A stretch of 52,923 bases of DNA, the filler included, from Catajapyx aquilonaris (lineage: Eukaryota), in NCBI GenBank assembly GCA_000934665.2. It is 2 parts of 2 records of this genome, joined end to end, with 100 filler letters (N's around TTAATTAATTAA, not from the genome) between each part and the next. Parts side by side here need not be neighbours in the genome. Positions count along the whole stretch, not along the records: positions 26,504 to 52,923 come from JYFJ02005214.1; 1 more part is not named here. One strand, given 5' to 3'. The position numbers were made by a program, and so were the translations under genes. Shown here piece after piece: positions 26,775 to 52,360 of this stretch (position 1 is the stretch's first letter; every line of letters starts with the position of its first letter). The notes under the pieces are model-generated. The model did not search any database. It was given only the letters and a program-made list of their open reading frames with translations, and was not told where the DNA came from.

Positions 26775-27243
26775 ATGGAGAGGGCCGCCCGTCATTCGCC
26801 CAACTCCTACGAGTTCCTGCGTAAATATTTCCTAGTTTCATTTCCACCTGACCAGACAACTTATGATCTTCTTTTCCGAACAGCTTTGGCAGTGATGGGA
26901 GGGATATTGTTTTTAATGTTCCTGGCGCTAGCAGCAGTCTTCTGGAAAGCCTGGATTCAGGAGAAGGAGCAGATCTACACCTACTTCAGCTGGCAGAACC
27001 TTTTCCGGTTCCGCATGTTCGCCTACCTGGCTATGCTTTGTAAGAAGAAGCCTGTGCCAGTCATCGCTGAAGATCAGGATTATTTCGGCATCCAAGTTCA
27101 GCCGTCCAAACCCTCTGTAAATATGATCAGCACATCCACCTGGCACAATTCGTGACTCCTTTTTCATTTGTCAATAGGTGTCTTACTCCGTCTTGATGGC
27201 CCAGGAGAATTTCCAACTCGAGAATGACGCCACAAGCGGCTAA
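26775..27243 (+). CDS. Small membrane protein family, paralogue A (114 aa)
   Basis: Exons 26775-26820, 26884-27116, 27178-27243 (intron phases 1, 0). TM LAVMGGILFLMFLALAAVFW; last exon begins VSYSVL; AATAAA at ~27309. Near-collinear with paralogue B. Confidence 0.8.
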
Positions 27244-28029
27244 CGACAAGCCTCTGGAACTCCTTTGTACTCATCAATGAGTTGTAATGGGTGCCATCCC
27301 ATGTCTGCAATAAAGCAGATTTCTGAGAGAAACTTACTTTGGATTTTCTTTCCCTCTATCTGTTTTTGCGCTTCATGAGTCAGATTTTCAGGCCATTTGT
27401 TTTCATTCCGGCAGCTAGCTACTCTGTGGTCCCGTGACTGATGGTTATAAGCAGGTATAAGATCAGTGCACATATTGGAGGTCGCGGAATAACTCTGTGG
27501 TATAGGTTCTGAATACGCCCCTTTCCCCCCAGGGATTGTGTGGGGACATTACGGATGTTCGTTGTATGTTTTTGGGTTGAAATATTGGTTTCTACTTTTG
27601 TTGAAGAAACTTTAAGCAGCCTTACTGTTTGCTTAACTAATTATTATTATTGAACCATGAAACAAGACCCCATTTGCTTAACTGGTCATTACTATGTTGA
27701 AATGGGCGATGTGAGTACTTAATAGATTCAGAGCCTGCATTTTTCACTCATGCAATATGGTGTGCCCGATCTGATTGTACATTCCCAATTGCAATTAAGT
27801 TACCGTTTTATTTAAACAGGTAATCATAATTTATAGGGCAAAGAGGGATGGGGGGCTGCTGCCATTATTATGATTGTGTTTCGCATGTTCAATCCTGACC
27901 CTGAATGCCAATTCGATGTCTTTCACTTTCAGGATATCTTGAGCATGGTATATGCAACAATAATAAGTTATTAATATCATACTTCGTACCATATTATCAT
28001 TACGCCACTATTAAGTGGAGTTTTCACTA

Positions 28030-29685
28030 TACTCCAGGTGGTAAGGGACAAATGGCCCAAACTTTGCATTTTGCGATAAAAGTAAGAAACTCGGTACACT
28101 CTTTCTTTGGACACTTTTGAGCATATCTGGACGTAGGGCCACGATCCCGCTGGATGTCAATTTAGCAGGGTTGCCATATTGAACAGGTGTAATAACCTAC
28201 CGTACCTCATCTACATGAATAGGGAGCTTGTATTCGGTTATAAAGACATGGACTAAATTGATCACATTTGGTCTTTGGACACTTCTGAGCATGTTCAGAC
28301 GTGGAGCCACGATGACTGACCCCGTTGTGGGTCAGTTTCGCCGGGTTGCCAAATCCAACAGACTGTGCAACATGCCTTTATAATATTATTTACATAGCGA
28401 GCTTGCATTCGGTGATAAAGACACGACGAAACTCGCCAAAATTGGTCTTCGGACATTTCTGAACATATCTGGACGTGAGGTCACGATGAGCGACCCCTAT
28501 TACGTGGTTACCATATTGAACAGGTGCAGCATACCTTTACATGAATACGGATCTTGCATTCAGTGATAAAAACACGCAACTAGCCATAATATTGGTCTTT
28601 GGACACTTCTGAACATGTGCAGATATGGGGCCACGATGACCGACCCCACTGGAGGTCACTATTGCAGGGTTGCCATATCCAACATATTGTTCAACATAGG
28701 TTTCTATTTGAATAGCGAGCTTGCATTCGGTGATAAAGACGTGAAACACGGTACACTAGCTCTTTCGACACTTATGAACATATCTGGACGTAGGGCCACG
28801 ATGAGCGACCCCGCTGGAGCTCCCTATTCAAATATAAAAGCGTGTTTCACAGTTTGTTAAATATGGAAACCCCGCGATAGTGATCTCCAGCGGGGTGGGC
28901 CATCGTGGCTCCACGTCCAGGTATGTTCAGAAATGTCCAAAGAACTAATGTACCCAGTTTCACGTCATTATCACCGAATCAAAGCTCCCCAATCAAATAT
29001 AAACGCCGTGATTGACCCACAGCTGGGGCGATCATTGTCGCCCCAATTGCAGACCTGTTCAGAAGTGTCCTAAGACCAATTGTGGAGAATGTCATGTTTT
29101 TATCACCAAAGGCAAGGTCCTTATTCACGTAAAGGTATGCTGCACCTGTTGGATTTGGCAACCTCGCGAAAGTGATCTCCAGCAGGGCCACCCATCGTGG
29201 CCCCACGTCCAAATATGCTCATAGGTGTCCAAAGAACTAGTGTAATTACCGATTTCACGTCTTTGTCACCTAATGCAAGCTCCCTATTTATATTGTCTAC
29301 GTATAGAGGTATGCGTCGGTCATCCATAGTGGCCCCACTTCCGGATATGCTCAGAAGTGTCCAAAGACCGATTGTGGCGAGTTTCATGTTTTTATCACTG
29401 AATACAAGGTCCTAGAGGATGCTGCATGTAACGGGAATCCCACGATGCAGGTAGGTTGATGAGGATCTCTTTCTGCCTCAAACAAAGTGACCGGGCCCAA
29501 ATGTCAAATAGGAAATCCTGTACACTGCACCTGGTAGATATGGAAACCCTGCGAAAGTGACCCCCGGCGGGGTCAGCCATCGTGGCCCCACGTCTAGATA
29601 TGCTCAGAAGTGTCCAAAGAACGAGTGTACCGAGTTTCATACTTTTATCAAAAATTCAAAGTTAAAACACTTAGCACCCGGACTA
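28030..29685. mobile_element. Foldback-like element with two inverted arms of ~150-175-bp tandem repeats
   Basis: About 5 direct units (TTTGGACACTTCTGAGCATATCTGGACGTGGGGCCACGATG...GGTGATAAAGAC) at 28060-28825 and about 5 reverse-complement units at 28860-29662. Outer ends TACTCCAGGTGGTAAG / CTTAGCACCCGGACTA are inverted. Confidence 0.8.
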
Positions 29686-30059
29686 CAACTATGCATGACA
29701 TAGCATCAACGAAGTGCAGGCGTTTTTCGTAAAACACTTTTAGGCCCGTATTCATAATGGACATTCTCAACCCGGGGTTGAGTAACCCCGGGTTGAGAGC
29801 GGGTTGGGGTTAACCCCGGGGTTGAGCCCGATCCGTATGCATAATGTCGAACATCCGCGAAGTTGAGTCGACTCCGCGTTCCAACCCCAGGGCTTACCAG
29901 GCTTGGAAACAGGCGTCCATTTCGTGACGTCACACTACCCAATACGGTACCGTATCGGACGCGACGCTAGCACTCTCACGCGGACGGATCGCGAAACGGC
30001 CCTGTGCTTGGCAAATGAGTGAAAATAACTGATGTCTAACTTACTATTTAATTTCGAAC

Positions 30060-30211
30060 GGTGGAATTTTCGTCGTACTACGAGTTACTGCTAACTTAGC
30101 AGTACATTTGCAGTATTGCACTACACTGGTACTGCTATAAGTTAGAAATAACTAATAGTACGACCCAAGAGTACGACCTCTTCCCACCATGAGTACGACA
30201 AAAATTCCACC
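30060..30211. mobile_element. Small nested inverted-repeat element
   Basis: GGTGGAATTTTCGTCGTACT...AGTACGACAAAAATTCCACC; CTAACTTACTA occurs on both sides (30036, 30212). Confidence 0.55.
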
Positions 30212-30771
30212 CTAACTTACTAACAGAACAGAGGTGGGCACAGCTATCCGAAAAATTAGCTTCTCTAACAGCTAGGCTAATAAGCTAACTAAAAATTCGC
30301 CTTTGCTAAATAGCTAAAGCTAAGGATTAAATCGGGCCCGTTTACGTTAACCTCTTGTACGACCATAAGTATTACGTTGCCGCATAGCTCGTCTGCTACA
30401 TACTGTATACGCAAATGTGCAATTAATACTCAATGACATTAAAGTGCATAATTTCTGCAGTGGACTTGGCCACTTTTGATCTCAGACCCATCACTAGCCA
30501 TTATTGTCATCCAACTTCTGCAGTATATTGTAAAATATGCGCCTGTAAATGAGCTGACTATTGGACCAAATAGCAAGTGCTGACCAGCATCTATTGTACC
30601 GAATAAGCTATAATTAACTCAGGGGGCTGGTTGAGGTAAGATTTTGGGTGAGGAGCAACAGTGACCATTATTTTTGTACTTCATGGCGGGGTGGTACGAG
30701 ACGCATTCTTTTCCTACAAAAATTGTAGAAGGTGTACTGTACATCAGAATACAAATGTAGCCTACTAGCTA

Positions 30772-31181
30772 CAGGGCGTCACAAGCAGGTCACAATTAAC
30801 AGTTACAAATAACAGTTATTTGCGCCATTCATGTAGCAGCTACATCAGCTTCATCGAAAATATTAGCTGCCAATAGCAGCATACATGTAATCAAGCATGT
30901 AATGAATCCTGTCCGGTTGACCTGGAAAAAATACACTGCCCTGTTTTACCCCGCGTGTGGCGCGGGAGTGGCAGCCTTCTTTGCGGACTCCCGGATTGGC
31001 ATTGGTGCCGCATGTGGCATGTGGTTCCAGCAGATTCATTACATGTATGCTGCTATTGGCAGCTAATATTTTCGATGACGCCGACGAGGTAATAGTTCAG
31101 ACGTAGCTGTTACATGAATGGCACAAAATCACTGCTATTTATAACCGTTAAATCGTCACTTGAACTTGGGATGACTCCCTG
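30772..31181. mobile_element. Nested Tc1-like MITE with long TIRs
   Basis: TA-CAGGGCGTC...GACTCCCTG-TA; internal inverted match CATCGAAAATATTAGCTGCCAATAGCAGCATACATGTAAT vs its complement at ~31038-31078. Confidence 0.75.
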
Positions 31182-32057
31182 TATAATTATGTAGCCCACC
31201 CAATAAAATCACTGTCTTTGCATGACTGATGTCAATTTATCAGTGGCCCTGAAATGGCCCGCTTGTCTACAGAGGAAGAACGAGGTCTGCCGCGATCATT
31301 TCGAGCAGGTTCAACACGCAGTCTTTCCGCAGGCGGTATCGTTGCCGGAGGGACGCGTCGCGTCGTCGTACACCTCCATCGGGTTCTCCGGGTCCCTCAG
31401 ACACACGCGTCGGAGGTCTAGCCGCTTCAGAACGGCTTGAATTTCGACCCCTTCCGCCATTTGCAATCGACCTCAACCCCGAGTTCAGATCTGAACCCTG
31501 GTCGAGGACCGGGGTCAACTCCTCGCCCGACTCAACCCCGGATCGCGGGGTTTCAAGGCCATTATGAATACGAACCCGGGGTCAACTCCGCCTCAACCCT
31601 GGGTTCAACCCCGACCCCGCGTTCGAATTTCATTATGAATACGGGCCATAGTGTTTTGCATGAAGGGTTAATATAGCGGTTATTATTTGTAATATAGGTG
31701 TATCTTGACCGTATCTTCAGAGTACGAGTAAGACAAAATCTAGGCGTTTCGGCCTAGCTGGTAGCAAAGGGCTTAACAGGATGACGGCATGACAACTAAC
31801 GCCATGAAGAGAAATAACAACAAAATCCTTGAGTCCAGGGCTCATAAAGATTCCTGTGTGGTGCATCTGCGTATAAATATGCCCAAATTTTGAAAATATC
31901 ATTATATCTTACGTTAGACTTTACTTACCCATTCTAATGTTTTCATTACCTTCAAAACCGTCACCTTGATCAAAAAAAGCAATTAATTTAGTAATTATGA
32001 GAATTATGCCCGTTATAAGACGGGCACTAATTACTAGCATTGAAGGATTTGTTTATA

Positions 32058-32620
32058 CAGGGTGTTTATTGTAACTCTGCAAAGACTTGCAGGGGTATTA
32101 GAGGGGACCAATTCAAGTATTTTTGACCTAGGAACCCGTGTCCGGAAACGCCATCTAGAGGGGGTTCATAGACAAGGAACGGGTGCGCTCAGACGCTTCA
32201 TGCGGGAGGCGCTAGGCGAGCGGACTGTTTTGTTGATAGATGGCGCTCGGATAGTAAACACCGATGCGATGTGCCATAACCTGGCAACAGCAGAGCCGTC
32301 TAGCAACTATAAAGTATGCCTCCTAGGAGATGCGTGAATAGTCAACAGCGATTTTGTTGTTGCCAGGTTATGGCGTATCGCGTTGTTGTTTACTTACAAC
32401 GACGCGATACGCCATAACCTGGCAACAACTGCGCGCCATCTATCAACAAAACAGTCCGCTCGCTAACGCCTCCCGCCTGACGCGTCAGAGCGCACCCGTT
32501 CCTTGTCTGTGAACTCCCTCTAGATGGCGTTTCCGGACACGGGTTCCTAGGTCAAAAATACTTGTCTTGGCCCCCTCTATTACCCCTGAAAGTCTTTGCA
32601 GAGTTACAATAAACACCCTG
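32058..32620. mobile_element. Tc1/mariner-type MITE, almost fully palindromic
   Basis: TA-CAGGGTGTTTATTGTAACTCTGCAAAGACTT...AAGTCTTTGCAGAGTTACAATAAACACCCTG-TA; arms longer than 200 bp. Confidence 0.9.
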
Positions 32621-32621
32621 T

Positions 32622-32895
32622 ATAATGGATACCCCATGATAGGCCTCCTGCGGCCTCTTAGGGGATCATCTTTTCGTGTACCGTCTTTAATCGTTGCCTG
32701 CGCTGTGATTGATTTTGATTGTGGGAGGAAACGGGAGAACCCCGAGAAAACCTACGCTAACATGGAGAGAACCCATCGAAACTCTATCCACATAAGTATC
32801 CTCTTTCCGATCCGGGGATCGAACTCGGGACCTCAGAGGTGGAAGACTGTGGCCCTAACCACTACCACTACGCCACGGTCGCCACCGTGTCGCCC
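32622..32895 (-). mobile_element. tRNA-derived SINE (family 1, copy 2)
   Basis: Aligns along its length with 20596-20854; B box GAGTTCGATCC on the minus strand. Confidence 0.85.
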
Positions 32896-33239
32896 TACAT
32901 AGTATTGAAGAATTGCCTTCGTGCAACCCGGTGCAACCCATTGTTTTCGCCCTTCCAATCATTCCGATGATGTGATGACATAAATACCCCCTCTTCACCG
33001 AGCCTTTTCATTGGATACCAGCTAAGGCTTGGCTTCTCCCAATCAGAGTGCTCTTCCGCATAGTTCAGTGCACGGTTCAGCGCCCTCTGCAGCCTCACTA
33101 CTTCCTACACCCCTGGCGGTCTCAGTGTCACCCAGTCATCCAGGCAACGCTGCTGCACTTTTCATTTCAGTCTTCATACAAGAGAGATCCAGGTCGTCAC
33201 GAGTTATCCGACAAGAGGTCAGCAGTGTTACAGGTTGCC

Positions 33240-33721
33240 ATGGACAGGGGCGTCTCTCATTCGCGTAACTCTCATCATCTGCGTAAGTATTATATCCTAG
33301 TTTCATCTCCACCTGACCAGACAACTTATGGGGCCATGATTTTCTTTTCCGAACAGCTATGGCAGTGATTGGAGTGATATTGTTCTTGATGTTGCTGGCG
33401 ATAGTGATGGCCATCTGTAAAGCCTGGCGTGATCAGAAGGAGCAGATCTACACCTACTTCAGCTGGCAGACCCTTTCCCTATTCCGCATGTTCGCCTACC
33501 TGGCTATGTTTTGTAAGAAGAAGCCTACTGTGCCAGCCATCGCTAATGATCAGGATTATTTCGGCATCCGGGTGCAGCCGACCCAACCCGCTGTAAATAT
33601 GATCAGCACCCCCACCTGGCACAGTTCATGACTGTTTTTTCTCATTTGCCAATAGGTGTCCTACCACATCTTGATGGCCCAGGAGAATTCCCAGCCCGCG
33701 GACGGCGCCACAAGCGGATAA
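33240..33721 (+). CDS. Small membrane protein family, paralogue B (114 aa)
   Basis: Exons 33240-33282, 33357-33592, 33656-33721. TM MAVIGVILFLMLLAIVMAIC; last exon begins VSYHIL; AATAAA at ~33787. Confidence 0.82.
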
Positions 33722-35039
33722 CGACAAGCTTCGGGAACTCCTCTGTACTCATCAATGAGTTGTAATGGGTGCCATCCCATGTCTGCAATAAAGCAGATTT
33801 TTGAGAAACTTACTTTCGGATTCTCTCCCCCCCCCTCCCCTCCCTTCCTTTTGTTTGCGTTTCAGGCCATTTGTTTTCTTTCTGTTAGCTAGCTACTCTG
33901 TTGTCCCGTGACTGATGGTTATAAGCAGGTAAGAGTGCATATTATGGAGGTCGCGGAATAACATTACTCGGTGGTAGGTTCCCATATTTTCCAGGGAATG
34001 AGGGGGCACCACTGATGTTAGTTGTATGTTTTTGGGTTAAGATTCATTTCTTCTTTTGTTAAAGAAAATTGAGACCGCCTTCTGCTTCCTTAGCTAATAT
34101 TTCCAAAAAACAAGACCCCATTTGCAACTGGGAAGTCGCCACGGGACATGATTATGTTGCAATGAGCTATGTGAGTACTAATTGCTTCGGAGCCTGAATT
34201 TTTCACTCTGCGACATGGCGTGCCCCATCTGTTTGTAAATTTCTTATTGCAATTACCGGTTTATTTAAACTGGTGATGATAATATATTTATAGGGAAATA
34301 GGGGTGGGGGTCGGCTGGCAAGGGCAGTTAGAGGGACTTAGAGGTCACTATTACTGTTTGTATACCAGGGATATGTGCTGTGTTGGCCGTTATACAGGAA
34401 GTATGTTGTGATAAAATGCCATTGCATGAGGTCATTGTCTTCCAGGGGAAAAAAACAATACGTGCCGAAGTGAATGAAACCCTGAAAACTGAATTTTTAA
34501 ATATTGCAAATTATTTTTGAAACGCTCGGTTTTTAAGGTTGCCGATTTCGTATTAAATGCCAAAGTATGCAATTTTCAAAATGGTGAACTTTTGGGGAGC
34601 TTTAAATAACAATGTCCAGGCCCCTGGACTTTGCCCAGGAGCGGGGTGGGACAGCAGCAAGGGTGGCCGACATTCGGGGACAACATGGTAGGCATATGGT
34701 GGGGAACGTTTGAGATCCCGGAGGCCCATTAGCAGATGATATTTCATAATCTGTCAAAGTAACTATAAACCTACCTTTGAAGTAACTGATTTATAACAAC
34801 AACAATATACGGTAATAATCCTGGTAGTGCTTCCACTTCAACAACCGGGTATGTCGCAGCCTGGACCATTATTATCTCCATAAACAAGTGTAACGACTTT
34901 GAACCTTGCACCTCGCCACCCACTCACCACAGCCAGTGAACCTGCGGGTTTCTCAAAAAGGTTCAGACATGGAAATGATTCACAGACAGACCCACAGGAG
35001 GCGACAAGAACGTGGTCTGTAATTAATTATGTTCATGTT

Positions 35040-35041
<2 letters not shown>

Positions 35042-35074
<33 letters not shown>

Positions 35075-35110
35075 TCCCTCTCTCTCTCCCTCTCTCTCTC
35101 CCCCCTCTCT
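35042..35110. repeat. (CT)n microsatellite
   Basis: Interrupted CT dinucleotide run. Confidence 0.9.
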
Positions 35111-35709
35111 CCCACTTTACGAAAATTGTATTTTTTGAAGCCAGTTGATGGAAATAACAGTGACAGGGGTCAGTGGGGTACACGAGATAAGTAGGCCACA
35201 GCACGCTGGACATATCAGGTTATGAAACTCGAGATTGATTTGTCCTGCTTTGCAAATCCCAAAGTTTCAGAATCCGAGATGAAAACCGTGAGAGGGTATA
35301 TCTGGCTCTCACGGTGTTATTTAAGAAGGCATGTTCCTTTTATTCGCATTAAATTTCGCAGCCCACTCTCATACCAAAGGTCACAGACTCACATGTACAG
35401 TATCAGAAAAAAAGTGACGACACAGCTTGAAAGGTGGGGCCGCCTTTATCTCATACGGTTATAGCCAATCACAGACGTGGAAGTTAACTGACAGCAAGGT
35501 AGACCAATCGAGGGCCTTGGAAATGACATGCGACAAGTCCATCTGATTCAGGTATGGTTGCATAAAGGCCTTTCGCACGCTGATTAGCTGCATATGTCTC
35601 AAGGCTGTTGTTCAACTCCGCCTTTAGTACCCCCATCAACTACACCGGCCATCATTTCCTACAGTCCAGCCAGAGGCCTCCATTTCTTGTGTTGCTCTCC
35701 AGCAGCAAG

Positions 35710-36317
35710 ATGTCGACCGGATTGGCAGATACAGACATGATCCTACAGATATCCGAGAAGAACAAAAAGTACTATCAGATGGGAAGCGGTAGCCACTATC
35801 TGGGTTTGTAAATCAAAGTGTCACCTCAACCTGACCTGCCAAATTCTGATAACTTATTCTTCTTCCCAGCAGCAGCATCCATTGTGGCCGTACTTCTGTT
35901 CGTCATTTTTGTAGTTCTGACCTGCACCGGTTGTGGATTTTGGATCAGAGTATTCGATCACATTCGTAGATTCTTCATGAATAGCGTACGTCAGCTGTTC
36001 CCTAGGAGTCCTGCCCTCACTATTCTCCAGGAGAACCAAGTAAATATGTGACTCATACCTTCCCGCCTACGCAGTTCATGACTCCTTTTTTCATCCTTCA
36101 GGATGTGGTGTCATACTCGTGGCTGGAGAGGCAACAAAGCAGCGAAGAGATCACAGAAGAGAACCCCCTGGAAGAGATCATCACAGAAGAGAACCCACCG
36201 GAAGAGAACATCCAGGAAGAGAAGGCCCTGGAAGAGAACTCCACAGAAGAGAACCCGCCGGAAGAGAACGTCCAGGAAGAGAAGGCCCTGGAAGAGAACT
36301 CCACAGAAGAGTGCTAA
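35710..36317 (+). CDS. Small membrane protein family, paralogue C (159 aa) with acidic repeat tail
   Basis: Exons 35710-35803, 35870-36039, 36102-36317 (phases 1, 0). TM SIVAVLLFVIFVVLTCTGC; last exon DVVSYSWL followed by EEN-rich repeats; AATAAA at ~36393. Confidence 0.75.
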
Positions 36318-36631
36318 TGCTGGCAGCCCAACAAACCTCATAACAACTTATGGAGTCACCACGCCTCGGAGTATGTGTGTCAGACAATTGCCAATAAACA
36401 TATTGTTGGGCATCTGATTTTTTCTCTCATTTCTAGCGTTTCCGCAGTCAGAGTTTCAGGCCATCTTTTATTTTAGGTGGCTGCTCAGTGGTCCCGTGCT
36501 TGATGATACTTGCAAGCAGGTATGAGAGTGTATTTTGGAAATGTGGACTTGGTAACTGTGGGCTGTAGGAGAGTGATAGTGTCCTAGGCATGGTTGTAGA
36601 AGACTCAGGTTAGGTCACTCCCCACCCACCC

Positions 36632-36904
36632 CCTGCCGAGGGGTTTTGCAGTGGGTGCTCACCTGAGACCGCCACGAGACATTTCCCAGAGCATTTATGT
36701 GGCGACCCTACCGGACTAAGGCTGAACTTTATAGGTACGAAAGGGAAGCTCTACATGCTGGCCCAACATGGCCGCCGGCATGTAGCCCTCCCCTTTCGTA
36801 ACTATAAAGTTCAGCCTTAGTCCGGTAGGGTCGCCACATAAATGCTCTGGGAAATGTCTCGTGGCGGTCTCAGGTGAGCACCCGCTGCAAAACCCCTCGG
36901 CAGG
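36632..36904. repeat. ~273-bp near-perfect inverted repeat (long hairpin)
   Basis: CCTGCCGAGGGGTTTTGCAG...CTGAACTTTATAG mirrored by CTATAAAGTTCAG...CTGCAAAACCCCTCGGCAGG. TAGTGTCC is repeated directly at 36577 and 36927. Confidence 0.9.
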
Positions 36905-36958
36905 TGATAAGCCCAGAAGATAGGGGTAGTGTCCGTGGGCTAGTCCTAGGGTAAGCGC

Positions 36959-37880
36959 TGTCACGTGTGACATTTTACTTGGATCGTCCCACGGATTGAA
37001 TATGGAATGGAATTGTCGATAAGATTTTTTTTGGTGAGTGCCTGGCTTTGCATAGCCAGTGAGTGGTGTTACTCCAGCGGGGCTGCTTGTGCCCTGTTTT
37101 CGCTGGGGCCACTCATAATCTTTGCCCTTGGGATTGTACGGAGTGTGTTGTACTCGTACGAGTATTGGGGAGACAGTCGGTAGCTCGGAGTGTTTTCTCC
37201 GTATCTGTTCCGCAGTGTGGGAAGGTCACGTCGGTGTGGTGAAATTGTACGCGCTGTCTTTCTTTTACCTTCCCCCCCCCCCCCTTTTTTTCCCTGGTTG
37301 GGCGTGGTGTGTTCTCGGCACCGTTGTTTGCACGGTCGGTGACATGCGGCCAAGTGATGCGTGGAATTCACGCCCCGAATAGTGCGACGTTCACGGAGAT
37401 GTCGTCCCACTTGGAAGTTGGACCTACACGAGAGATTCGGAGAGGAATCATTGAAGTTGGTCAAATGGTGCGTGTTGGAGTTTACCCGCGCTAGTGCGTT
37501 CCTTTTTTGGGGGGTTCGTTTCACTTCAGAAATATTCAGTGAATACGAGACTTGAAGTTGTTTGAAACTGAAAGCACCTTTTGGTGCTGTTAATCCTACC
37601 CAGGACAGTGTTAACCGGTGTGGACGCTCGTTGTGAGTAGGCCTATACAGTTTGGGAGTGTGGTTCAGGCCTGTTAACATTGTGAGTTTAACCTACCTAG
37701 CCGTCCGTTCATATCTCCTAAACTATTTGTGAACCCTTTTGATTTGGACTTTGTCCTCTCGCCTGAACTTTTTTTTTTGTATGTGTGAGAATAAAGATTT
37801 TCTCCAGGAAGCACGTTTAGCATGTCACTCTCTGCTTATTATAGATGCTATTGAGCCTCTCTCAAATTAACTTCGTGACA
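36959..37880 (+). mobile_element. Solo-LTR-like segment
   Basis: Begins TGTCACG and ends CGTGACA (TG...CA inverted ends), AATAAA at ~37790, and truncates a SINE at its right end. No TSD seen. Confidence 0.5.
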
Positions 37881-37965
37881 GTCAGGATCGGCGGCCCCGG
37901 GAATCGAACCCAGGACCTCCCGATTAGCAGTCTGGCTCCTTAACCACCACGCCAACAGGCTTCGG
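37881..37965 (-). mobile_element. tRNA-derived SINE head fragment (family 2)
   Basis: Minus strand TGGCGTGGTGGTTAAG...GGAGGTCCTGGGTTCGATTCCCGGGGCCGCCGATCCTGAC matches 51139-51181. Confidence 0.7.
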
Positions 37966-40900: not shown

Positions 40901-41884
40901 TTCTGGGCGTAAATGACCATCCGAGTTGCAGGAGTAATCCCTTACGTGACAGATCAAATCCCATAAGAAAAACAAGGTGGAGATGGCGTCATTTTACGGA
41001 TGTCTCGTGCAGTCGGCGAAGGCGAGCTAGGACTTGGAGCCTTGTCAACTCACACCAATCATCAAGGCGTCATCAAGCCATTCTAGTTCTAGCAACTTAT
41101 CATCATTAGATGGAAACAACATTATGACTGCTAGCAGTGCTGCAGGCTAATCAAGCCCAACTGAGGTGAAAGGTCATCTCGCGGCAGGTTGCACTATAAA
41201 CCACACCAAGACAGTAATGTAAATGGGGAAAAGTTTTCAACTCTATTGATATGAAATTCATGAAGTGGCACGTCATCTTTCTGGTGTGCATTGGAGTTCA
41301 TATAATTTTCTACTCGGGAGATGGAAAAATATATAATTTCCCCTATTATTCATATTTTTTCCTTTCTGCGACCCTTGTCTCTTGTAGGGGGCATAAGGCA
41401 TAAAGATCACAAAGACGTTATGAGGAGAAGTGCTCGTTACTTACATTATTTTCGTCTTATAGGGTAGGCTACATGGTCATCTTAATAACAGAGAATATAT
41501 ACACATTATTATATGTTTTCAACGTTAACAAAAAAGGAAATCAGCTACAAAATGTCGTGTCTGTCCATATTAACAAACAGAGGTTGCATCTTTTCGGGTG
41601 GGCACTGTAATTGTTTTGTCCCCAATTGGTCATAAATTTTGTAATACAAAGATAAGTTCACTCTCCAGTTGCACCATTCGCAAGTCTCTCCTGCATCATT
41701 CACCTTGATAATGTAGATTCCTTAATTTTCATATGTATGTAGCGTTAAGTTATACATTAAATTTGTTCACACACACACACTGCCCAGAGCCGAGAGTGAT
41801 CAGACGTGTGAATAAGCTGCTGCACTGAAGATAACATCCGGGCCCAATCGGACCCAATCGGACTCACCGTCAGAACCAGCCGAG

Positions 41885-42724
41885 ATGGCCTCAAAAGAAG
41901 AAATCAAGACCTTACTTGATGATCTCAAGAAGGACATGATGGAACAGTTAACCTCAAAATTGGATCAGACGATGAGACAACTGGACACGAAGTGGTCAGT
42001 AGCGGTGGAAGAAATTCAAACGGGGCAACATAGTTTGGTGACCCAATTGGAAGCAGCCAACGCCCGTATTACCGAGCTACAGAAGACACAGGGAGTGTTA
42101 GTGAAGAAGATAGACGAGGACGAAAACAAAGCACGACGGAATAACCTAATTTTCCACGGTCTACAGGCGGAAGAACCATTGGATTCCTGGAAACAGGTTG
42201 ACAGCACATGTGCCCTTTGAAACTCTACATATTCTGGTGAGTCATGGAGTTGGTACTTAGCTATAAAGGTGCGTAAAGACCTCTTACGCACCTTTATAGC
42301 TAAGTACCAACTCCATGACTCACCAGAATATGTAGAGTTTCAAAGGGCACATGTGCTGGGACGCCCCAGGAGGGGGGGCCCATTGATAGCCGCATTTTAA
42401 AGATCCAAAGATAAGGAGACAATACTAGGAAGAGCAAGGAATCTTAAAGGCACGAATCTATCGATTAATCAGGACTATTCAGCACAAGTGCGTATGACCC
42501 GCGACAAACTACTACCCTTCCTACGGAGGGCTCGCGAAGAGGGCAAGAAAGCAACGTTGAAGTTTGATCAACTGATGATTGAAGGCACGCGCTTTCAACT
42601 CAATACAGAGGGCGGAGTGGATCAGGTGACATACAACGCTGAGAGGCCCTCTAAGGAATACCCGAAGAGGCAAAGGTCTTCCCCAGGTGTACAGCAGGAC
42701 CCCAAGAAAAAGGCGACGAAATAG
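41885..42724 (+). pseudogene. LINE ORF1 (coiled coil plus RRM-like), disrupted
   Basis: Coiled-coil N-terminus, RRNNLIFHGL, FQRAHVLG, LKGTNLSINQDYS. Interrupted by a 75-bp inverted insertion (42202-42276) and an in-frame TAA at 42398. Confidence 0.85.
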
Positions 42725-42946
42725 AGACAACACGACGAGATACGGGAGCGGGCGGAATCAATGGGAGTTATGGTCCATGGGATAGAAGAAGAGGAGGGAA
42801 GTAGCTGGCCAGCGATACAGGAGGTGGATCAAAGCCCGAGGAAACACCCGGACCCAAGGAAGAAGAATCAAAGCAACACACGTGGTGGAAGAGGAAGCAG
42901 GCAATGAAGGAGGGAAGGCGAGTGGCACAAGGTCAACTCCGAAGAA

Positions 42947-45900
42947 ATGGTACAGCCTAACAAAAACACAGTTCAAGAAATAACAACAATTATTTATGGA
43001 TCCCGGAACATTACTGGAAGCCAGGAGGTCGAAGTGATAAGTGAGTGCGCGAAAGTTCTGGATATCTCAGGGTATTACGGTGCTGTTGAAACCCAGCTCT
43101 TGAACCAGAGTGTCGCCCAAGAAGTGAGTACCAAATCATCAGTTCGATTAGGCAGCACACCACAAATTTTGCAAAAAGTTAGAAACCCCAAGTTGCAGTG
43201 CCCTCAAAAAAACTATTATCCACTTCAATTCTCCTTTTGGAATATAGCAGGCTTGAAAATAAACAGTGCATGGTACATAATGCATTCAAAATTAAATGCA
43301 CCTAAAATAGTGGGTTTCACAGAGACCTGGCTTGAAGAAGAGTATAATCCAGTGGACAGTGTAAAGAATTATTTATCATGGCACTCACTAGCAAATATGA
43401 GTTCTCATTTTGGTCATGCATCTGGTGGGTTATGGCTAGCCATTGACAAGACCTTAAAACCTGAACTAATTTCAAAATCTGAACATTATATTTGTGTTGC
43501 TATTGTTTATGTGAATGATATGAAGTATTTGGTACAATTAGTTTATCTTTCACCACTGTTAAACGAACACACTTTCCGACAAACATTGGAAGTCCAAGCA
43601 ACAACCGCGCTTGAAACGGGTAATCCCTTAATTATTATAGGTGACTTCAATGCTCGAATTGCGGATTGCCCAGGCTATCAAATTGAAGAAATAACATCAC
43701 TATTAGAAAACAATACAAGAATCTCCCGAGACAAAAATATAAACAAGAACGGCAAAGTCCTGATTGACTTTTTAGATACATATTCTTTTTTTGTAATGAA
43801 CGGAAATATGCCATCAGATTCCCCAGGGTCATACACTTTCATCGGAGGCCAAGGTCAAAGTGTGGTAGATTTTTGTTTGCTATCGCAGAACATAGCGGAA
43901 CTAGCTGTAGATTTGATAACGACACCTAGCCAAGACTCAGATCATACTATGTTGACAGCCCTTTTGGATTTCCCTCAAATGGAGACACCCAAAATAAAAA
44001 TATCGAAACAGGTGTTAACATATCCCGAGCAAGGTCTGGACTTTCTGAAAGATGATATGAATAAATCATTTGCAAATGCTATAAATAATGCCCAGATAAT
44101 GGAAATCTCAGAAATAAATGAGAAGGCAAGGCAATTACTAACTGATTACGGTATTTTGCACAAGATGACTATAAGTAATAAAAACCATGCCAGAAAGCAC
44201 TCTTCCCCATGGTTCGATGCGGATTTAACTTATGAAAGATTGATATTAACGGAAACGCTTAAACAATGGGAAAGGAATCCATCAGATGAGGCCAGGGCCG
44301 ATTATTCAAGTAAGAGGAAAATCTACAAAAAATTAGCAGCCGCAAAGAAAAAAAAGTTTTATTCGGAAACATTAAGAATAAAGCTCTTAGACACAAGAGA
44401 CCCGAAAAAGTTTTGGGAGGTGGTGAAGCAATCCAAAAAATACAAAACCCAGATAAATATAGACAAAGAGGAATGGTGGAATTATATAAGTAAATTGCAT
44501 ACAAATAGCGATCAGGGAGTTTCACATATAGTCGCAATTGATTTCTACCTCGAGGTACCCTCGCTGGATCAGCAGTTATCGAGAGCTGAATACGATACAG
44601 TGATAAAAGGACTAAGATTAAAGTCATCCCCAGGCCCAGACATGATCTCGAATTCCTTAATCGCAGTACAATCAGAAAACTTTCATGAAGCGATTTATAA
44701 GCTAATAAAGTTCTGCTTAGAGACTAATTCCTTTCCCGAAGGGTGGGATCAGGCTAAATTATGCCCTATATACAAGTCGGGAGATAAGGAAGATCCAGCA
44801 AATTTCAGGCCCATTGCACTTTTCAATAATACTTTTAAAATCCTTACAAAAATGATAAATAACAGAATAAAAAACTGGGCAGAATCTAACAATATATTCC
44901 CGGAATGGCAAGCAGCTTTCAGAAAGGGAAGGAGTTGTGCAGACCACTTATTAACTTTGCATATTTTAATTCAAAAATATACAAATAAACCTAAGGGAAA
45001 ATTATATGCAACGTTTATTGATCTAACGAAAGCTTTTGACTCTATCGGACATGACATGTTACTACAAAAGCTATACAAGCAAGGACTTAGTCACAAACTA
45101 CTACAGTTGATTAAAGCAATTTATGCCAAAATGGAAATAGTAGAAGATTACCAATCCATCCGCACGATCAAAATAACGAAAGGGGTACCACAAGGGGATT
45201 CATTAAGTCCAACACTCTTCAATCTATTCTTGGCGGATCTAGATATTTTTATGCAAACCAAAAATTGCAAAGGTGTAAATTTTGATGGTAGTCATCCAGA
45301 CATTATGGTACTGGCTTATGCAGATGATTTAGTTCTCTTGTCGGACAACCCATTATATTTACAACAGAACTTGAACGCATTAAGAAACTTTTTTGATCTA
45401 CACGAATTACAAATAAATTTAAAAAAGACAAAAATTATATGCTTTCGGAAAGGTGGCAGACAACCAGATAAGATATTTTATTGGAATTTGGAGAAGATAG
45501 AACCGGTATCGTCCTATACATACTTAGGCATTCCTTTCAAAAGTTCGGGAAAATTTATTTTAGCGGCGGAACAAATGAAGAAAAAGCCCTGGCAGCAATA
45601 AATGGATTATGGCCTACCTTGATAAATTTAAAATTAAGAGACCTTAAAGTAGCCATGCAATTGTTCCACGCCCATATTGCCCCAATCATAATGTACAATG
45701 CCCACATTTGGGGCCCAAACCATAATAAACCAAATTCAAATTGTATTTATAAAAAGGTTTCTTGGACTTCCAAAAAACACAGCGAACTATTTTATTTACC
45801 TAGAAACAGGAATACTACCACTTACAATAACACTAGTTAAAACGATCGCCAGGAATATAGAAAAACTGATTAATACAGGTAACCACAGACTGGTAAAGGC

Positions 45901-46474
45901 AGCCTACAATTATGTTGAAAAAATAAACCAAAGGAACCCTACAATGAAAGAAAACTGGATTTTTGCTTGTAAGTTCTTAGTGCAAAAGAATGAGCTGAGT
46001 TGGAAGGATCTCTTTATAGATTTATCTCAAGCCACGGAAACCCTAACTACAAATATAAAAAGAAACACGATTAGTATGCTACAACATACCACTAGATATT
46101 CACACTACAAAGACATTAAAATGAGTTACGAGCAGGAAAGTTATCTAGCGTTTGGCCTACCAATAATTCAGACACGAATAATAACAAATATAAGGAACAA
46201 TTCAAAATACGTACGCCTGAAACAGGATTCAATAAAACTATATCATGAAGAATATTGCGAATGGTGTAACATGAATGAACCTCTGTCAGCACACCACATA
46301 ATATATGATTGTTTATACTTTGTGACACCTAGGAAAAATTACCTACAAGACCTGCCCACATTCCCCCCAACAAGCTATCATCTCCTTTTCCAAAATATAC
46401 CAAAGCAACACATATTTTCTCTATTTAAATTTTTCCAAAACGTGAACAAAAGAATTAATTTTTCAAAATACTAA
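42947..46474 (+). pseudogene. LINE ORF2 (AP endonuclease, reverse transcriptase, C-terminal CCHC), frameshifted
   Basis: WNIAGL, TETW, GDFNAR, SDH (APE); GVPQGDSLSPTLFNLF, YADD (RT); CEWC...HIIYDC. Split across three overlapping ORFs (42947-45601, 45481-45840, 45698-46474). Confidence 0.92.
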
Positions 46475-48683
46475 ATATGTTAAGGGTCATATGTTTATGT
46501 ATATAAAAAAACTAAAATTGGAAATTGGAAATTTGGCAGGGTATGTGTCCCCCGAAACAGGACGCAATGTACTGAGAAAGGGGTATGAAAATAAAAAATA
46601 AATAAAAAATAAAATAAATACATTAAATTTGTTACAATTCTTAAGATTGTGATGGGCAGCTCATAATTCACAAATACTTTTTCCGATTATCATTAAATTC
46701 CGTCAATTATTATACAATAAAAGGAAAAAGGTAGAGGGATAAAATGTCCGATTTACAAGAAACATTTCCGTTGTAGACGTCAACCATTATCAGGAAGCAA
46801 ATCAGTGCAGAGCGTTGTGCAGAGTGTATATACTGAGGAAATGGCTTTGACGCATCTTAGTCGGCGTCTGGCGTAAACACCTTCACTAGCATAAGAGATG
46901 TAATCTACTCTTCTTTAATTTATTTTTCCATTTCCGGTTTCATCTGACCTACGAATGCACTTGTGACTCAGACTGTCTGCCCAGAGTCTGCGTAACTCTT
47001 GTTACAGGACCACTGATAACATTTTATCAACTACACTACAACGCAACGGTAGCCTTTTTATACATATTGCATTTGTGTATTTTATAAAGCACGTTACATT
47101 CAGCATCCTGGATGACTATGTTGTTTAGTATACAGAATATTATTTCATAATGAATCAGGCTTACTTCTAAGGTGAACCCATGGGAACGTAATGCTGTATA
47201 CTGTGTAAAAGTAGTGGTAGCATTTGGCCTTTGCAGAGTCGTTACAAAGGTATTAATTAGCATTAATCAAAGAGTGCATTTTGCCATATCCAGTATCGCG
47301 AATACAACCTGGTACACTGTCATGGCAATTATAACTTCAACAAACTGAAATATCATAGTAACACATATATTGTAAATTAATATGAAGGTGACGTATAAAT
47401 GCCACAATATTAATTTTTATACTTCGTGTATGAACGATACCTCTGTACAGTATATACAGAGGTATCGTTTATGCTGGGGGAATCCTTTGGTGCAAGAAGT
47501 TCACCATAGAAGTTTATCTGAATCATTATGAAACGCCAGTTCAGGCAACTACTACCGTACATGAACCTCCCCATTTATAGGACCGTTTTTAATGAACATA
47601 TTAGTATTTTCTGTGTATAGCTCTCCAAAAATAGACGACAATTATTCACTTAGCTTCCCCACTCCCATAAAATTATTTTCCAAATTGTACAATTCATTTG
47701 TGTTAATTAAGATGTGCACCACACTGGTGCACACCTTAATTAACATTGTCACACCTCTTGATCCTATAGGTATGGTATATGATCAAAGCTGGACCATATT
47801 TCGTTCTTTCGTCGACAGTATAGTCCATCAGGACACTGTCAATGACTGACAGGATGATGCGCCTGAGACACTGGCCGGAAACATTGTAGAGAGAGTTAGG
47901 CCGTGCTGGGTCCATCCAAAAAACTACCCCTTTCCTTGGGCTACCATTTCTTAGTCTACCTCTACACACTATAGTCTCGGACTGAGGTGGTTTAGAATTG
48001 TTTCAAGTTTCTCCTGAATGAGTGTTTTACTATTAAACCCAAGTAGTGGACTAAAAGTTAACCCTGCTGCCTGCTGGTCTGTGTTTCTAAATGTGACCCA
48101 ATGAGTGCAATCCTTGACGTGACTGCTGTGGGGAATGGTGATGCATAATTATAATATTATTTTTATTCGATTTTTGATGCATTTTAAAATTATTGACCGA
48201 TTCTGGAATTAGGCCATAAACTCTGGGTGAGACTGCATAGCAACATTGCCATTTACTGAGTCATCGAAGACACATCGAGGACATCGACGACACATACGCC
48301 AGGCCTCTCAGTCGGAAAGAATGGAAACAAAAAAGGAAGTGACGACACAGCTTGGAAGGCGGGACCGTATTAGTATCATAAATCTGACAAACACACACAC
48401 AGCAGTGAATTGGCTGCAAGGTAGACCAATCGAGGGCCTTGAAAATGACGTGACGACACGAAGAAGTGCACAAATCTATCTATTTGGATCTGATTAGTGC
48501 ATTTGTTTCTAGGCCAAGATTGAACTCCGCCCCCAGCGGCCATTGTTTCTTACGGTTCATCCAAGAGCTTCTTCCAGTTCTGACCAAGTCCTCCAAGTGC
48601 AACAACCACCTTCTGGACACTACAGAGCAGAGCAGAGAGAGAGAGAGAGAGACTACAGAGCAGAGCTTCGTCGAGAAATCAAG

Positions 48684-49239
48684 ATGGACGAAGAAACCAC
48701 CATGAGCGTCTACGCCTTGTACGGCATCAGGGGCGAGCGTCGCAACCTGACTGCCATCGAACAACATCCACTGCTGAAAATACCGCTGATGCTTCTCGGT
48801 TGGTATTTGCAAGTGTCACCCACCTAACCTGTCCAACTCTGAACTCTGATTTTCTATTCCCAACAGGATTCTTGATGATTGGCTTGACTATCTGTGGATT
48901 GTTCATGCTGTTGATGTTTAGCTTCTACGAGTTTCTGATGCAGAATGCGGCTCGAATCGAAGCCTTAGCCCGGAGACACGAAGCAGCTTACCAGATCTAC
49001 CTCCGGATGGCAACTGTGTTCAACTGGACCATTGATGACCCTGATCGTGCTATCCCCGCTCACATTCAGGACTTGCCTGACGACGATGAGATGCCCGAGC
49101 AGGAGATCGTACATGTATGACCCACCACCTTTCCTCTCCCCCCGACACAGTTCATGACTTCTTTTTTATCTTTCAGGAGATACGATACTCCGAAATTCTC
49201 ACTCAGGCCAACAATGATGGAGGGTACTTCCTGGGGTAG
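48684..49239 (+). CDS. Small membrane protein family, paralogue D (139 aa)
   Basis: Exons 48684-48798, 48867-49108, 49177-49239 (phases 1, 0). TM LMLLGFLMIGLTICGLFMLLMFSFY; last exon EIRYSEI; AATAAA at ~49303. Promoter and intron sequences are shared with paralogue C. Confidence 0.75.
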
Positions 49240-51531: not shown

Positions 51532-52288
51532 TATTATTATGGCATAAATCCTGAAACAAGTTAGTGTCTACTCTCAACGTTGCAAATTGCAACTGAGCCT
51601 GAGAATGAGAGAACAATATTATTCGCGTTATGCGGAAATTGTTGCAACATTACTCAATTAAAATTAACATGTATTATGCATAATTTACTGCGGCAAATGA
51701 CTGTTTGGATTACTGTCTGACGTCAGTACATCTGTTCAGAAGTGTTTGGGGTTAATAATGAGTAAACATGCCAACAATCGGATCTCATAAGGCCCATTTA
51801 TGCTACACCCAAATGAATTGACCACTTGCAGAGGCTTTTTCAAAAATTTATCGATCATACTTATACCAACTTGGGACACCGCCGAAGTCAACAACCCAGT
51901 ATATAGCCTGTACATTCGGCAAGTAGAAGGCGTTCCATCCGGAAGTCTGGAGGTTTTGCTGCCCTCCTTCGTCCCATGCACGGCAACGGGTTTTGGTCTG
52001 GTGCTGCCAACAACTCAGGAAGGAGATGGTCCTCCTGCCTTGCCCGTCCTTTGTTGGTGAACGTCACCTGGGACACCGCCTAAGTCAACATCCCAGCATA
52101 GCCTGTCCTGTCGGCAATCCCCCTCCTCCCCCTTCTTTTTTAAAAGAAAAAAATTATCTGCGAGTTCCTGACTGGGCTTCAGATTTTATTTTTATTTTTT
52201 GTATGTGTATTTGGTCATACGAGGATACTGAGGACCTCCTCCTCAATATCCGCTGGTAACCCCATATCTGTTTGGGAAACGCCGTGAA

Positions 52289-52360
<72 letters not shown>
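52289..52360. repeat. (GAT)n microsatellite
   Basis: Perfect GAT run of roughly 24 units. Confidence 0.95.

Follow-up and report, generated by a model that had tools for sequence, protein, structure and literature searches.

Results

Four neighbouring genes of one predicted architecture

The window analyzed here is a 52,923-nt stretch of DNA from the arthropod Catajapyx aquilonaris (GCA_000934665.2), in which positions 26,504-52,923 come from JYFJ02005214.1. It contains four neighbouring same-strand predicted genes, A, B, C, and D, encoding proteins of 114, 114, 159, and 139 amino acids, respectively (Table 1). The single architecture claimed for them in the original prediction was recovered in all four: three exons, one transmembrane (TM) helix where exon 2 begins, and an AATAAA signal 66-76 nt 3' of the stop codon. 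The introns are GT-AG in 8/8 cases, 61-74 nt long, and in phase 1 and then phase 0 at the predicted junctions. Because these phases are shared and the introns and 3' ends are homologous, the sequences support the assignment of A-D to one gene family.

Gene B is a close paralogue of A (77.5% over 1371 nt, blastn); their exons 1 and 2 each differ by 3 nt in length, and their two introns by 11 and 2 nt. A 60-nt unit, present in 2.6 copies at 92%, makes up the acidic tail of C. Under mononucleotide shuffling, the probability that the spliced frame is open by chance was 0.0078, 0.0098, 0.00025, and 0.0016 for A, B, C, and D, respectively, and the other two frames of the spliced sequences contain 3-10 stops. 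A chance origin of these open frames is unlikely.

Table 1. Coordinates of the gene family and its associated elements within the window.
Feature	Position	Strand	Details
Gene A	26775..27243	+	exons 26775-26820, 26884-27116, 27178-27243; TM helix residues 14-34
A intron 1	26821..26883	+	phase 1
A intron 2	27117..27177	+	phase 0
A tyrosine motif	27178..27195	+	VSYSVL
A 3'UTR	27244..27314	+	AATAAA 27309-27314
A block	27392..27454	+	63 nt; donor CAG/GTATAA
Gene B	33240..33721	+	exons 33240-33282, 33357-33592, 33656-33721
B intron 1	33283..33356	+	phase 1
B intron 2	33593..33655	+	phase 0
B tyrosine motif	33656..33673	+	VSYHIL
B AATAAA	end 33787	+	homologous to that of A
B block	33866..33928	+	63 nt; donor CAG/GTAAGA
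C upstream block	35407..35535	+	shared with D only
Gene C	35710..36317	+	exons 35710-35803, 35870-36039, 36102-36317
C intron 1	35804..35869	+	phase 1
C intron 2	36040..36101	+	phase 0
C tyrosine motif	36108..36125	+	VSYSWL
C AATAAA	end 36393	+	homologous to that of A
C block	36460..36519	+	60 nt; donor CAG/GTATGA
D upstream block	48330..48458	+	partner of that of C
Gene D	48684..49239	+	exons 48684-48798, 48867-49108, 49177-49239
D intron 1	48799..48866	+	phase 1
D intron 2	49109..49176	+	phase 0
D tyrosine motif	49180..49197	+	IRYSEI
D AATAAA	end 49303	+	homologous to that of A
D block	49372..49432	+	61 nt; donor CAG/GTAAGA
Partial inverted copy	49938..49982	-	45 nt; post-donor part of block only

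Conservation is higher in introns and 3' ends than in coding exons

The rapid evolution that had been proposed for the family was evident at the coding level. Over the 114 codons of A and B, dN was 0.188 and dS 0.218 (dN/dS 0.86), with ratios of 1.12 for the N-terminus plus TM helix and 0.68 for the tail; gene pairs deeper than A-B are saturated for dN/dS. A ratio near 1 would also be expected of a decaying gene, but the four intact frames argue against decay. Between the classes A/B, C, and D, the exons were unalignable as DNA (z -1.1 to 2.2; exon 1 alone, z -0.5 to 0.3). The proteins had been described as barely alignable, which holds for D against the others (Smith-Waterman z -0.2 to 1.8) but not for B and C, which retain weak yet significant similarity (z 8.6, 0/500 shuffles); for A and C, z was 4.4 (2/500 shuffles).

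The non-coding parts gave a different picture. Across A-D, 32 columns of intron 1 are invariant, including a CCTGACC/CCTAACC core (between-class z 7.7-10.9), as are 32 columns of intron 2, with a TTC(A/G)TGACT core and a run of T after it (z 7.4-11.2). Five importin-alpha3 introns of the same window showed no resemblance to the family introns (40 comparisons, z -1.9 to 2.9). Compared with MAG/GTRAGT, the family donors agree at 5-7 of nine positions, with at most six in 7/8 donors, and the importin donors at 6-8 of nine, with at least seven in 4/5. The consensus fold of the introns contained 0 pairs. In the 3'UTR, the CAATAAA context is invariant in A-D, A and B differ at 3/71 positions, and the between-class z was 3.7-7.8. 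Introns and 3'UTR combined differ between A and B at 13/195 positions, fewer than the flanks, which differ at a rate of 0.158 (P=1e-4); intron 2 alone (7/61 differences) was not significantly slower than the flanks (P=0.23). As judged from these alignments, the introns and 3' ends are clearly better conserved than the coding exons, which is unusual and constitutes our main new result.

Upstream of the genes, C and D alone share a block with two CCAAT motifs 175-300 nt 5' of the ATG. Over the upstream 300 nt, C and D compared at z 18.3 and A/B versus C/D at z -0.9 to 2.2, showing that the upstream region of A and B differs from that of C and D.

A similar pattern is found in snake three-finger toxin genes ('accelerated segment switch in exons', ASSET), in which intron segments are >85% identical and exon segments 12.5-50% identical; like A-D, those genes are tandem paralogues with three exons and two introns (PMC2474615). 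In A-D, the introns can be aligned and the exons cannot. The toxins are secreted and cysteine-framed, with a conserved signal peptide and documented dN above dS. A-D, by contrast, are predicted membrane proteins, diverge in all three exons, the first included, have an A-B dN/dS of 0.86, and carry a conserved element past the poly(A) signal. The family therefore shows the conservation of introns and UTRs above exons that typifies venom genes, but not their secreted products or conserved signal peptide, since exon 1 is unalignable between classes and the hydrophobic segment is an internal TM helix. Genes for cone-snail toxins and for venom phospholipase A2 are comparable cases.

A conserved exon-like block follows each poly(A) signal

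Approximately 75 nt 3' of AATAAA, each gene is followed by an exon-like block of 60-63 nt (between-class z 7.9-17.5), which, with z up to 17.5, is the best-conserved element of the gene unit. In A, a pyrimidine-rich tract and TTTCAG precede the 63 nt, which end at CAG/GTATAA. Conservation extends approximately 45-50 nt beyond the block donor, and bases 221-500 past AATAAA gave between-class z of -2.1 to 2.2. The 52.9 kb hold only four full copies, each behind a family gene, and one partial inverted copy, which nhmmer detected at E 2.2e-5 and 5.2e-7. This copy is 78% complementary to 49429-49473, lacks a GT where the donor would be, and lies 464 nt from the block of D. A 131-nt palindrome is located 3' of the block of C.

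A spliced-leader or snRNA-type gene was considered for the block and rejected, because the copies are too different (75% mean column identity, with differences at many positions), their folds are no better than those of shuffles (z 0.95 to -0.31), and Rfam gave no match at gathering score, only two chance-level matches (E 1.9 and 3.3) in 35300-36800. The consensus fold was weak (-6.5 kcal/mol, compensatory pairs 1/16), and ARAGORN found no tRNA. An AUUUGG-like site after the block donor is the only likeness to genes of that type.

Non-coding sequence surpasses the exons in conservation at both shallow and deep divergence, with the block foremost, and this would be expected if selection acted on an RNA-level product comprising the introns, 3'UTR, and block, such as a small-RNA host or regulatory transcript, with the small ORFs secondary. 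We consider this improbable: the four long spliced frames are open, their indels are in-frame, and the tyrosine motif described below is kept through synonymous change, while the fold, Rfam, and ARAGORN results for introns and blocks give such a product no structural signature.

The block might also be foreign to the small genes, either as a leader exon close to the promoter of the gene that comes next in the array or as a transposon-derived module travelling with the duplication. Initiator-like TCAG motifs, an ATG that is invariant and lies 9-19 nt 5' of the strong donor, and the position of the blocks of A, B, and C upstream of the next family member are consistent with this, and the partial inverted copy and the palindrome suggest mobile-element behaviour. 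However, C and D carry their own conserved CCAAT-containing upstream block, the 3'UTR and the block form one continuous conserved stretch with constant spacing, and the full copies in the window all stand behind family genes. Furthermore, a neutral transposon relic would decay like its surroundings, as bases 221-500 past AATAAA have. A foreign origin thus seems unlikely, if less so than a purely RNA-level product.

A single predicted membrane helix and the orientation of the tail

In each protein, the Kyte-Doolittle mean over 19 residues exceeds 1.6 in a single segment. The second hydrophobic stretch in A and B, which had been thought capable of altering the topology, reaches means of only 0.81 and 1.05 and is not membrane-spanning by hydropathy. 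As 13-34 residues come before the hydrophobic core in A-D, the proteins lack a classical signal peptide, in agreement with the original prediction. These 13-34 residues form no ligand-binding ectodomain, such as the extracellular Ig- or lectin-type domain of ITIM-bearing inhibitory receptors, and Pfam domains are absent from every exon. AlphaFold2 modelled exon 2 of A/B as a single helix at residues 2-54 with pLDDT <50 thereafter (mean pLDDT only 65); the tyrosine motif opens exon 3 straight after this low-confidence C-terminal part. The tails, of 78-102 amino acids, lack a cysteine framework or folded domain according to Pfam and the AlphaFold2 model covering A/B exon 2. The sole cysteine in A is Cys68; B has Cys35 and Cys67, C has Cys50 and Cys53, and D has Cys48.

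Single-exon queries detected no homologue when run against Pfam, through two word-index searches, and with HMMER against 1.84 billion proteins (C was run against Pfam only). In a protein-language-model search with a lead threshold of 0.9, the nearest proteins to A exon 2 were stannin and TMEM52 (score 0.78, 114/256 features shared), bitopic proteins of ~65-85 amino acids with an N-terminal TM helix; we take this score as likeness of type, not kinship. D exon 2 reached 0.94 with bacterial pseudopilin-like clusters, a generic likeness.

The 15-residue N- and C-terminal flanks of the TM helix contain K+R counts of 2/2 in A, 2/3 in B, 3/3 in C, and 2/1 in D, and therefore favour a cytosolic C-terminus in no member. 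The motif may consequently lie off the cytosolic side, as it would in type II (N-in, C-out) signal-anchor proteins whose tail is external or luminal and serves as a ligand, either at the surface or shed, that is subject to diversifying selection. The two N-x-S/T sequons in the tail of C and the one in that of D would suit this arrangement, as would fast evolution with conserved non-coding parts, the pattern of secreted toxin families (PMC2474615). Yet sequons are absent from A and B, another one lies in the N-terminal segment of D, the tails are without cysteine frameworks or a folded domain, and the A-B dN/dS is lower in the tail than in the N-terminus plus TM helix. Taken together, we regard a type II ligand as a minority possibility.

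A tyrosine motif opens exon 3

Tyrosines number 5, 5, 1, and 4 in the tails of A, B, C, and D, and a single position is common to all four. It lies in the motif predicted at the start of exon 3, whose positions were borne out in every gene and which fits the ITIM consensus (I/V/L/S)xYxx(L/V/I), used as originally given, in 4/4 proteins at residues 1-3 of exon 3. When the tails were shuffled, a match beginning in these first three residues arose in 0.15-0.9% of cases, depending on the gene. The family motif could be lengthened to nine residues, [VI]-x-Y-[SH]-x-[LI]-x-x-Q, and its residues are kept despite third-position codon differences (Ser TCT/TCC/TCA; Leu/Ile TTG/CTG/ATT), which points to selection on the motif peptide. 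Only three independent lineages carry it (A/B, C, and D), and since A/B and C are detectably homologous at the motif, D is the sole fully independent witness.

The motif appears to fit several tyrosine-motif classes equally well. YSVL, YHIL, YSWL, and YSEI all fit the pattern of the YxxPhi endocytic or sorting signal, Yxx[LIMFV], which acts in cytosolic, unstructured tails, and the same six residues presumably also match Atg8-interacting motifs and generic SH2 sites. The proposed role, in which A-D are inhibitory transmembrane adaptors of immunity or gamete recognition whose cytosolic ITIM is phosphorylated and recruits an SHP2/Corkscrew-type phosphatase, has in its favour the consensus itself, with V or I always at position -2, and an arthropod precedent: the ITIM of Drosophila Draper-II binds Corkscrew, the SHP2 orthologue (PMC8092387). 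Draper, however, is a large EGF-repeat engulfment receptor, not homologous to A-D, which have no ectodomain though they match the ITIM consensus. The bare layout also resembles the adaptors LAT, NTAL, PAG, LAX, and SIT, which like A-D lack a cleavable signal peptide and an enzymatic domain, have one TM helix after a short N-terminal segment (4 amino acids in LAT and 16 in PAG, against 13-34 in A-D), and bear a tyrosine motif in the tail (PMC3342071). In these adaptors the short segment is extracellular and the long tail, on the cytoplasmic side, holds several tyrosine-based motifs for SH2 docking. LAT and PAG have 9-10 tyrosines, against 1-5 with one conserved in the tails of A-D, and LAT, NTAL, and PAG (not LAX) carry a juxtamembrane CxxC, which among A-D occurs only in C. 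These adaptors are vertebrate proteins without sequence homology to the arthropod proteins A-D, and the single-exon searches linked A-D to no adaptor. Moreover, the ITIM consensus is loose (58 matches per 25,638 ORF residues of the window), the conserved stretch exceeds an ITIM in length and includes S/H at +1 as well as Q at +6, and the flank charges give the tail no orientation. We therefore give phosphatase-recruiting adaptors little credence; one family, fast evolution, and a positional tyrosine motif stand from the original interpretation, its step to ITIM function, phosphatase recruitment, immunity, or gamete recognition finds no support, and of the transmembrane-adaptor features listed in PMC3342071 only the bare layout is matched.

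Discussion

The reading we prefer, to which we assign roughly an even chance, is that A-D form a taxon-restricted tandem family of small bitopic membrane proteins that carry a tyrosine motif and possess a constrained non-coding scaffold. Tandem duplication of one three-exon ancestor would have yielded the four genes. Selection at the protein level would be confined to the N-proximal membrane helix, the integrity of the frame, and the nine-residue motif, with the remainder of the protein drifting at about the neutral rate. The likeliest mode of action, we infer, would be docking or sorting through the tyrosine motif, anchored at the membrane and bound on the tail side by a single specific partner, and ITIM-type phosphatase recruitment would be just one of several possible actions. 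Purifying selection on the short weak-donor introns, the 3'UTR/poly(A) region, and the exon-like block would be stronger than on the coding exons, and non-coding constraint above coding suggests that RNA processing is tightly and specifically controlled.

A bolder and much less probable extension is that the weak-donor introns, with their family-specific elements, and the strong-donor block constitute an RNA-processing switch, by which a transcript would either be polyadenylated or be read through and spliced to the unit that follows. As the units share phases 1 and 0, read-through could make chimeric or polycistronic messages. In antigen-variation gene families, conserved introns serve the choice of one member for expression. 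If true, such a switch could let one array produce small membrane proteins in different combinations; in a related version, the scaffold would enforce expression of one member at a time.

Gene models and genomic setting

Four same-strand genes, A, B, C, and D, had been described in the original prediction as sharing one three-exon architecture. The four gene models were rebuilt from the sequence and showed the same exon/intron layout, confirming this description. All eight introns were of the GT-AG type, 61–74 nt long, and in phase 1 and then phase 0; two of the five mapped introns of an importin alpha-3 gene in the same window were similarly short (60 and 68 nt). The predicted spliced frames of A, B, C, and D encoded 114, 114, 159, and 139 residues, respectively. 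Only 0.03–1% of mononucleotide shuffles kept frames of such length open, and 3–10 stops were present in the remaining two frames of the spliced models. Between A and B, the coding parts of exons 1 and 2 each differed by 3 nt in length, and the introns by 11 and 2 nt. Joining exon 1 to the membrane exon requires splicing in B, C, and D. An AATAAA signal was located 66–76 nt past each stop, in a CAATAAA context invariant among the four genes. The acidic tail of gene C consisted of a 60-nt unit repeated 2.6 times (92%), so repeat growth accounts for some of the difference in exon length. A–D have the look of real genes and form a real family.

The DNA of the window was animal, with a G+C content of 42.7% and three N runs, and contained several other genes and repeats. 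The 897-aa frame of a LINE carried its endonuclease and reverse-transcriptase domains and was followed by two overlapping frames; therefore, the 3' part of this element seems to be frameshifted. A Ser/Thr/Glu-rich open frame was found directly downstream of a Na/K-ATPase beta-chain-like exon; the two possibly form one mucin-like chimeric gene, or the frame may belong to a neighbouring gene. The spacer between A and B was largely filled by dense direct and inverted repeat copies, one copy of a dispersed repeat was located approximately 350 nt upstream of the conserved region of gene B, and a microsatellite was present near an Arf-family-like exon.

Features of the window, with positions counted along the whole stretch
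Feature	Position	Strand	Remarks
Gene A	26775-27243	+	
Post-poly(A) block of A	27392-27454		
Gene B	33240-33721	+	
Post-poly(A) block of B	33866-33928		
Gene C	35710-36317	+	
Post-poly(A) block of C	36460-36519		
Gene D	48684-49239	+	
Post-poly(A) block of D	49372-49432		
Palindrome past C block	36632-36904		131 nt; inverted repeat, arms 95% complementary, 11-nt loop
LINE	41816-46474	+	between genes C and D
MYST acetyltransferase gene			zf-MYST 4.8e-23; MOZ_SAS 6.3e-57
Importin alpha-3 gene		-	best relatives arthropods, identity up to 85%
Importin alpha-3, last mapped intron	8307-8382	-	apparent GC donor, GAT/GCAAGT
FAM69-type kinase-like gene			
Rhodanese-like exon			
Na/K-ATPase beta-chain-like exon	21731-22093		E 5e-7
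Ser/Thr/Glu-rich open frame	22445-23308	+	
Repeat in Ser/Thr/Glu-rich frame	22589-22968		126-nt unit x3.0, 99% identity
Repeat-filled A-B spacer	28060-29650		unit roughly 100-170 nt, 68-86% identity
Dispersed repeat, 281 nt	20595-20860, 32621-32901		84% identity
Arf-family-like exon	51851-52063	-	19.3 bits vs Pfam cut-off 22.3
(TGA)25 microsatellite	52285-52360		

Non-coding segments are more conserved than coding exons

A blastn self-comparison showed that C and D aligned in non-coding DNA only. Therefore, each segment of each gene pair was scored against shuffles, and z values were determined for comparisons between the three classes (A/B, a pair of close paralogues; C; and D). The three coding exons scored −1.1 to 2.2. 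Intron 1 scored 7.7 to 10.9, intron 2 scored 7.4 to 11.2, the 3'UTR scored 3.7 to 7.8, and bases 61–220 past AATAAA scored 7.9 to 17.5, with bases 221–500 falling to −2.1 to 2.2. Over the 300 nt upstream, sequence was shared only within A/B and within C/D. These values indicate that neutral DNA is saturated between the classes and that the alignable parts are constrained.

In each intron alignment of the four genes, 32 columns were invariant. When the family introns were compared with the five importin introns, the z values ranged from −1.9 to 2.9 (40 comparisons), showing that intron conservation is not general to the introns of this species. A search of the rest of the window for the family intron motifs, allowing up to 2–3 mismatches, returned nothing except two weak 3-mismatch matches to the intron-2 motif.

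The recent pair A–B showed a pattern in line with the between-class comparisons. Its coding sequences gave a dN of 0.188 and a dS of 0.218 (ratio 0.86), and 15.8% of positions differed in the DNA flanking the two units. Differences amounted to 3/63 in intron 1, 7/61 in intron 2, and 3/71 in the 3'UTR; pooled, these segments differed at 13 of 195 positions (P=1e-4 against the flank rate), and intron 2 alone did not differ significantly from that rate (P=0.23).

The donors of the family introns were weak, matching the consensus at 5–7 of 9 positions (seven of the eight at 6 or fewer), and those of the importin gene matched at 6–8 of 9. Such short, weak-donor introns may depend on specific intronic elements, a dependence that would explain why they are conserved. 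A mirtron reading of the conserved introns was also considered and rejected, as 0 pairs were predicted. Separately, introns 1 and 2 of the family showed a weak mutual likeness (z 1.1–5.3 in 16 comparisons), and both introns of A and B carry CCACCTG after a GTAA(A/G)TAT donor; this likeness could stem from an element present in both introns or from an ancient internal duplication. The excess of non-coding over coding conservation is unusual and statistically solid.

A conserved element past the poly(A) signal

The conserved DNA past each AATAAA contains an exon-like block. A pyrimidine-rich tract (62–90% over 40 nt) lies approximately 75 nt past AATAAA and leads to an invariant TTTCAG, followed by 60–63 nt, a CAG/GTAWRA donor (6–8 of 9 to consensus), and 45–50 conserved bases. 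Exact and near-exact searches of the window returned four occurrences of the block, each located behind a family gene; 0.14–0.15 matches were expected by chance. A profile search added a fifth copy, which was partial, inverted, and limited to the post-donor part, without the GT, 464 nt beyond the D block; no fifth gene was apparent beside it on the minus strand in 50000-51000. A palindrome, foldback- or MITE-like, was observed approximately 110 nt past the C block.

Several identities of the block were examined. No reading frame was common to the four copies. The folding energy was no better than that of shuffles, the consensus fold was weak (1 of 16 pairs compensatory), and Rfam and tRNA searches of the block gave no match; on these grounds, a C/D-box snoRNA, a spliced-leader RNA, and a tRNA-derived SINE were rejected. 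A protein-coding gene downstream of the block was likewise rejected, as, of 129 stop-to-stop ORFs, mostly intergenic, none located between or after the family genes reached the cut-off of any Pfam family. A metagenome scan with an 18-base block motif returned at least 120 loci, this pattern being too loose; blastn gave no further similarity beyond this pattern (longest match 27 nt), and the loci were dismissed as chance matches. The block could be an exon used alternatively or on read-through, the leader exon of the following unit, an element that marks termination or a boundary, or a domesticated repeat.

The tyrosine motif and the membrane segment

Exon 3 opens with VSYSVL in A, VSYHIL in B, (DV)VSYSWL in C, and (E)IRYSEI in D, and a Gln six residues past the Tyr is also common to all four, giving the shared pattern [VI]-x-Y-[SH]-x-[LI]-x-x-Q. 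Per gene, 0.15–0.9% of shuffled tails matched the ITIM consensus, (I/V/L/S)xYxx(L/V/I), starting within the first three exon-3 residues. Within the motif, residues are kept while third codon positions vary, a sign that selection acts on the peptide and not on the splice-site context; in gene C, the motif sits two codons away from the acceptor. The proteins had been described as barely alignable, which was true of D (z −0.2 to 1.8 against the others) but not of B and C, which still align across the motif region (z 8.6). Because A and B are recent duplicates, B and C are alignable, and D aligns with none, D is the sole independent witness of the motif. Judged from these sequences, the tyrosine motif is genuinely conserved. 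An inhibitory-adaptor function, as originally proposed, finds no support in A–D beyond the fit to the ITIM consensus.

In each protein, one hydrophobic segment, located where exon 2 begins, exceeds the membrane threshold. A second hydrophobic stretch described in A and B was present but remained below this threshold (0.81 and 1.05 versus 1.6). Flanking charges, sequons, and cysteines pointed to no orientation in A–D. For exon 2 of A/B, AlphaFold2 gave a model that was weak overall (mean pLDDT 65) and predicted a single helix at residues 2–54, with the rest at low confidence. As the tyrosine motif lies in exon 3, just past the modelled exon 2, disorder around it is only an extension of the model.

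Homology searches and known systems

Protein searches were performed on single exons, with those of gene C queried against Pfam only. No Pfam family reached the cut-off with exon 2 of A, B, C, or D or exon 3 of C (best DUF4405, 17.2 versus 26.7 bits), a word-index homology search with exon 2 of A and D gave no candidates, and a HMMER profile of A and B exon 2 had 0 matches among 1,835,955,588 representatives. A protein language-model atlas returned only generic small look-alikes with an N-terminal TM segment. In the literature searched, we found no description of this family, or of such a conservation pattern in arthropod membrane microproteins.

Inverted conservation, with non-coding above coding DNA, has been documented chiefly in genes of secreted toxins; parallels to the pattern of A–D are offered by venom phospholipase A2, conotoxins, and the conserved introns of antigen-variation genes. 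The closest evolutionary pattern is that of snake three-finger toxin genes, three-exon paralogues with introns >85% identical and exon segments down to 12.5–50%, a process termed ASSET (PMC2474615). The genes of that system, in contrast to A–D, encode secreted toxins and keep their first exon conserved (PMC2474615). In layout, A–D resemble the vertebrate transmembrane adaptors as defined in PMC3342071, but differ from them in having CxxC in one of four proteins, one conserved tyrosine, and no homology. ITIM–Corkscrew signalling occurs in arthropods, in Draper-II (PMC8092387), and this precedent would make the ITIM idea biologically possible.

Significance

On the present basis, A–D appear to be a well-supported annotation with an unexplained conservation pattern. 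If expressed, they would represent a clean small family of orphan membrane proteins in which selection keeps only a nine-residue motif and one helix, with the introns, the 3' end, and the post-poly(A) element under tighter selection than the exons. The tyrosine motif would provide a direct handle for a partner search by peptide pull-down, and the family would be a tractable case for the role of short conserved introns with weak donors. Inverted conservation in non-secreted arthropod microproteins would widen the phenomenon beyond secreted toxins.
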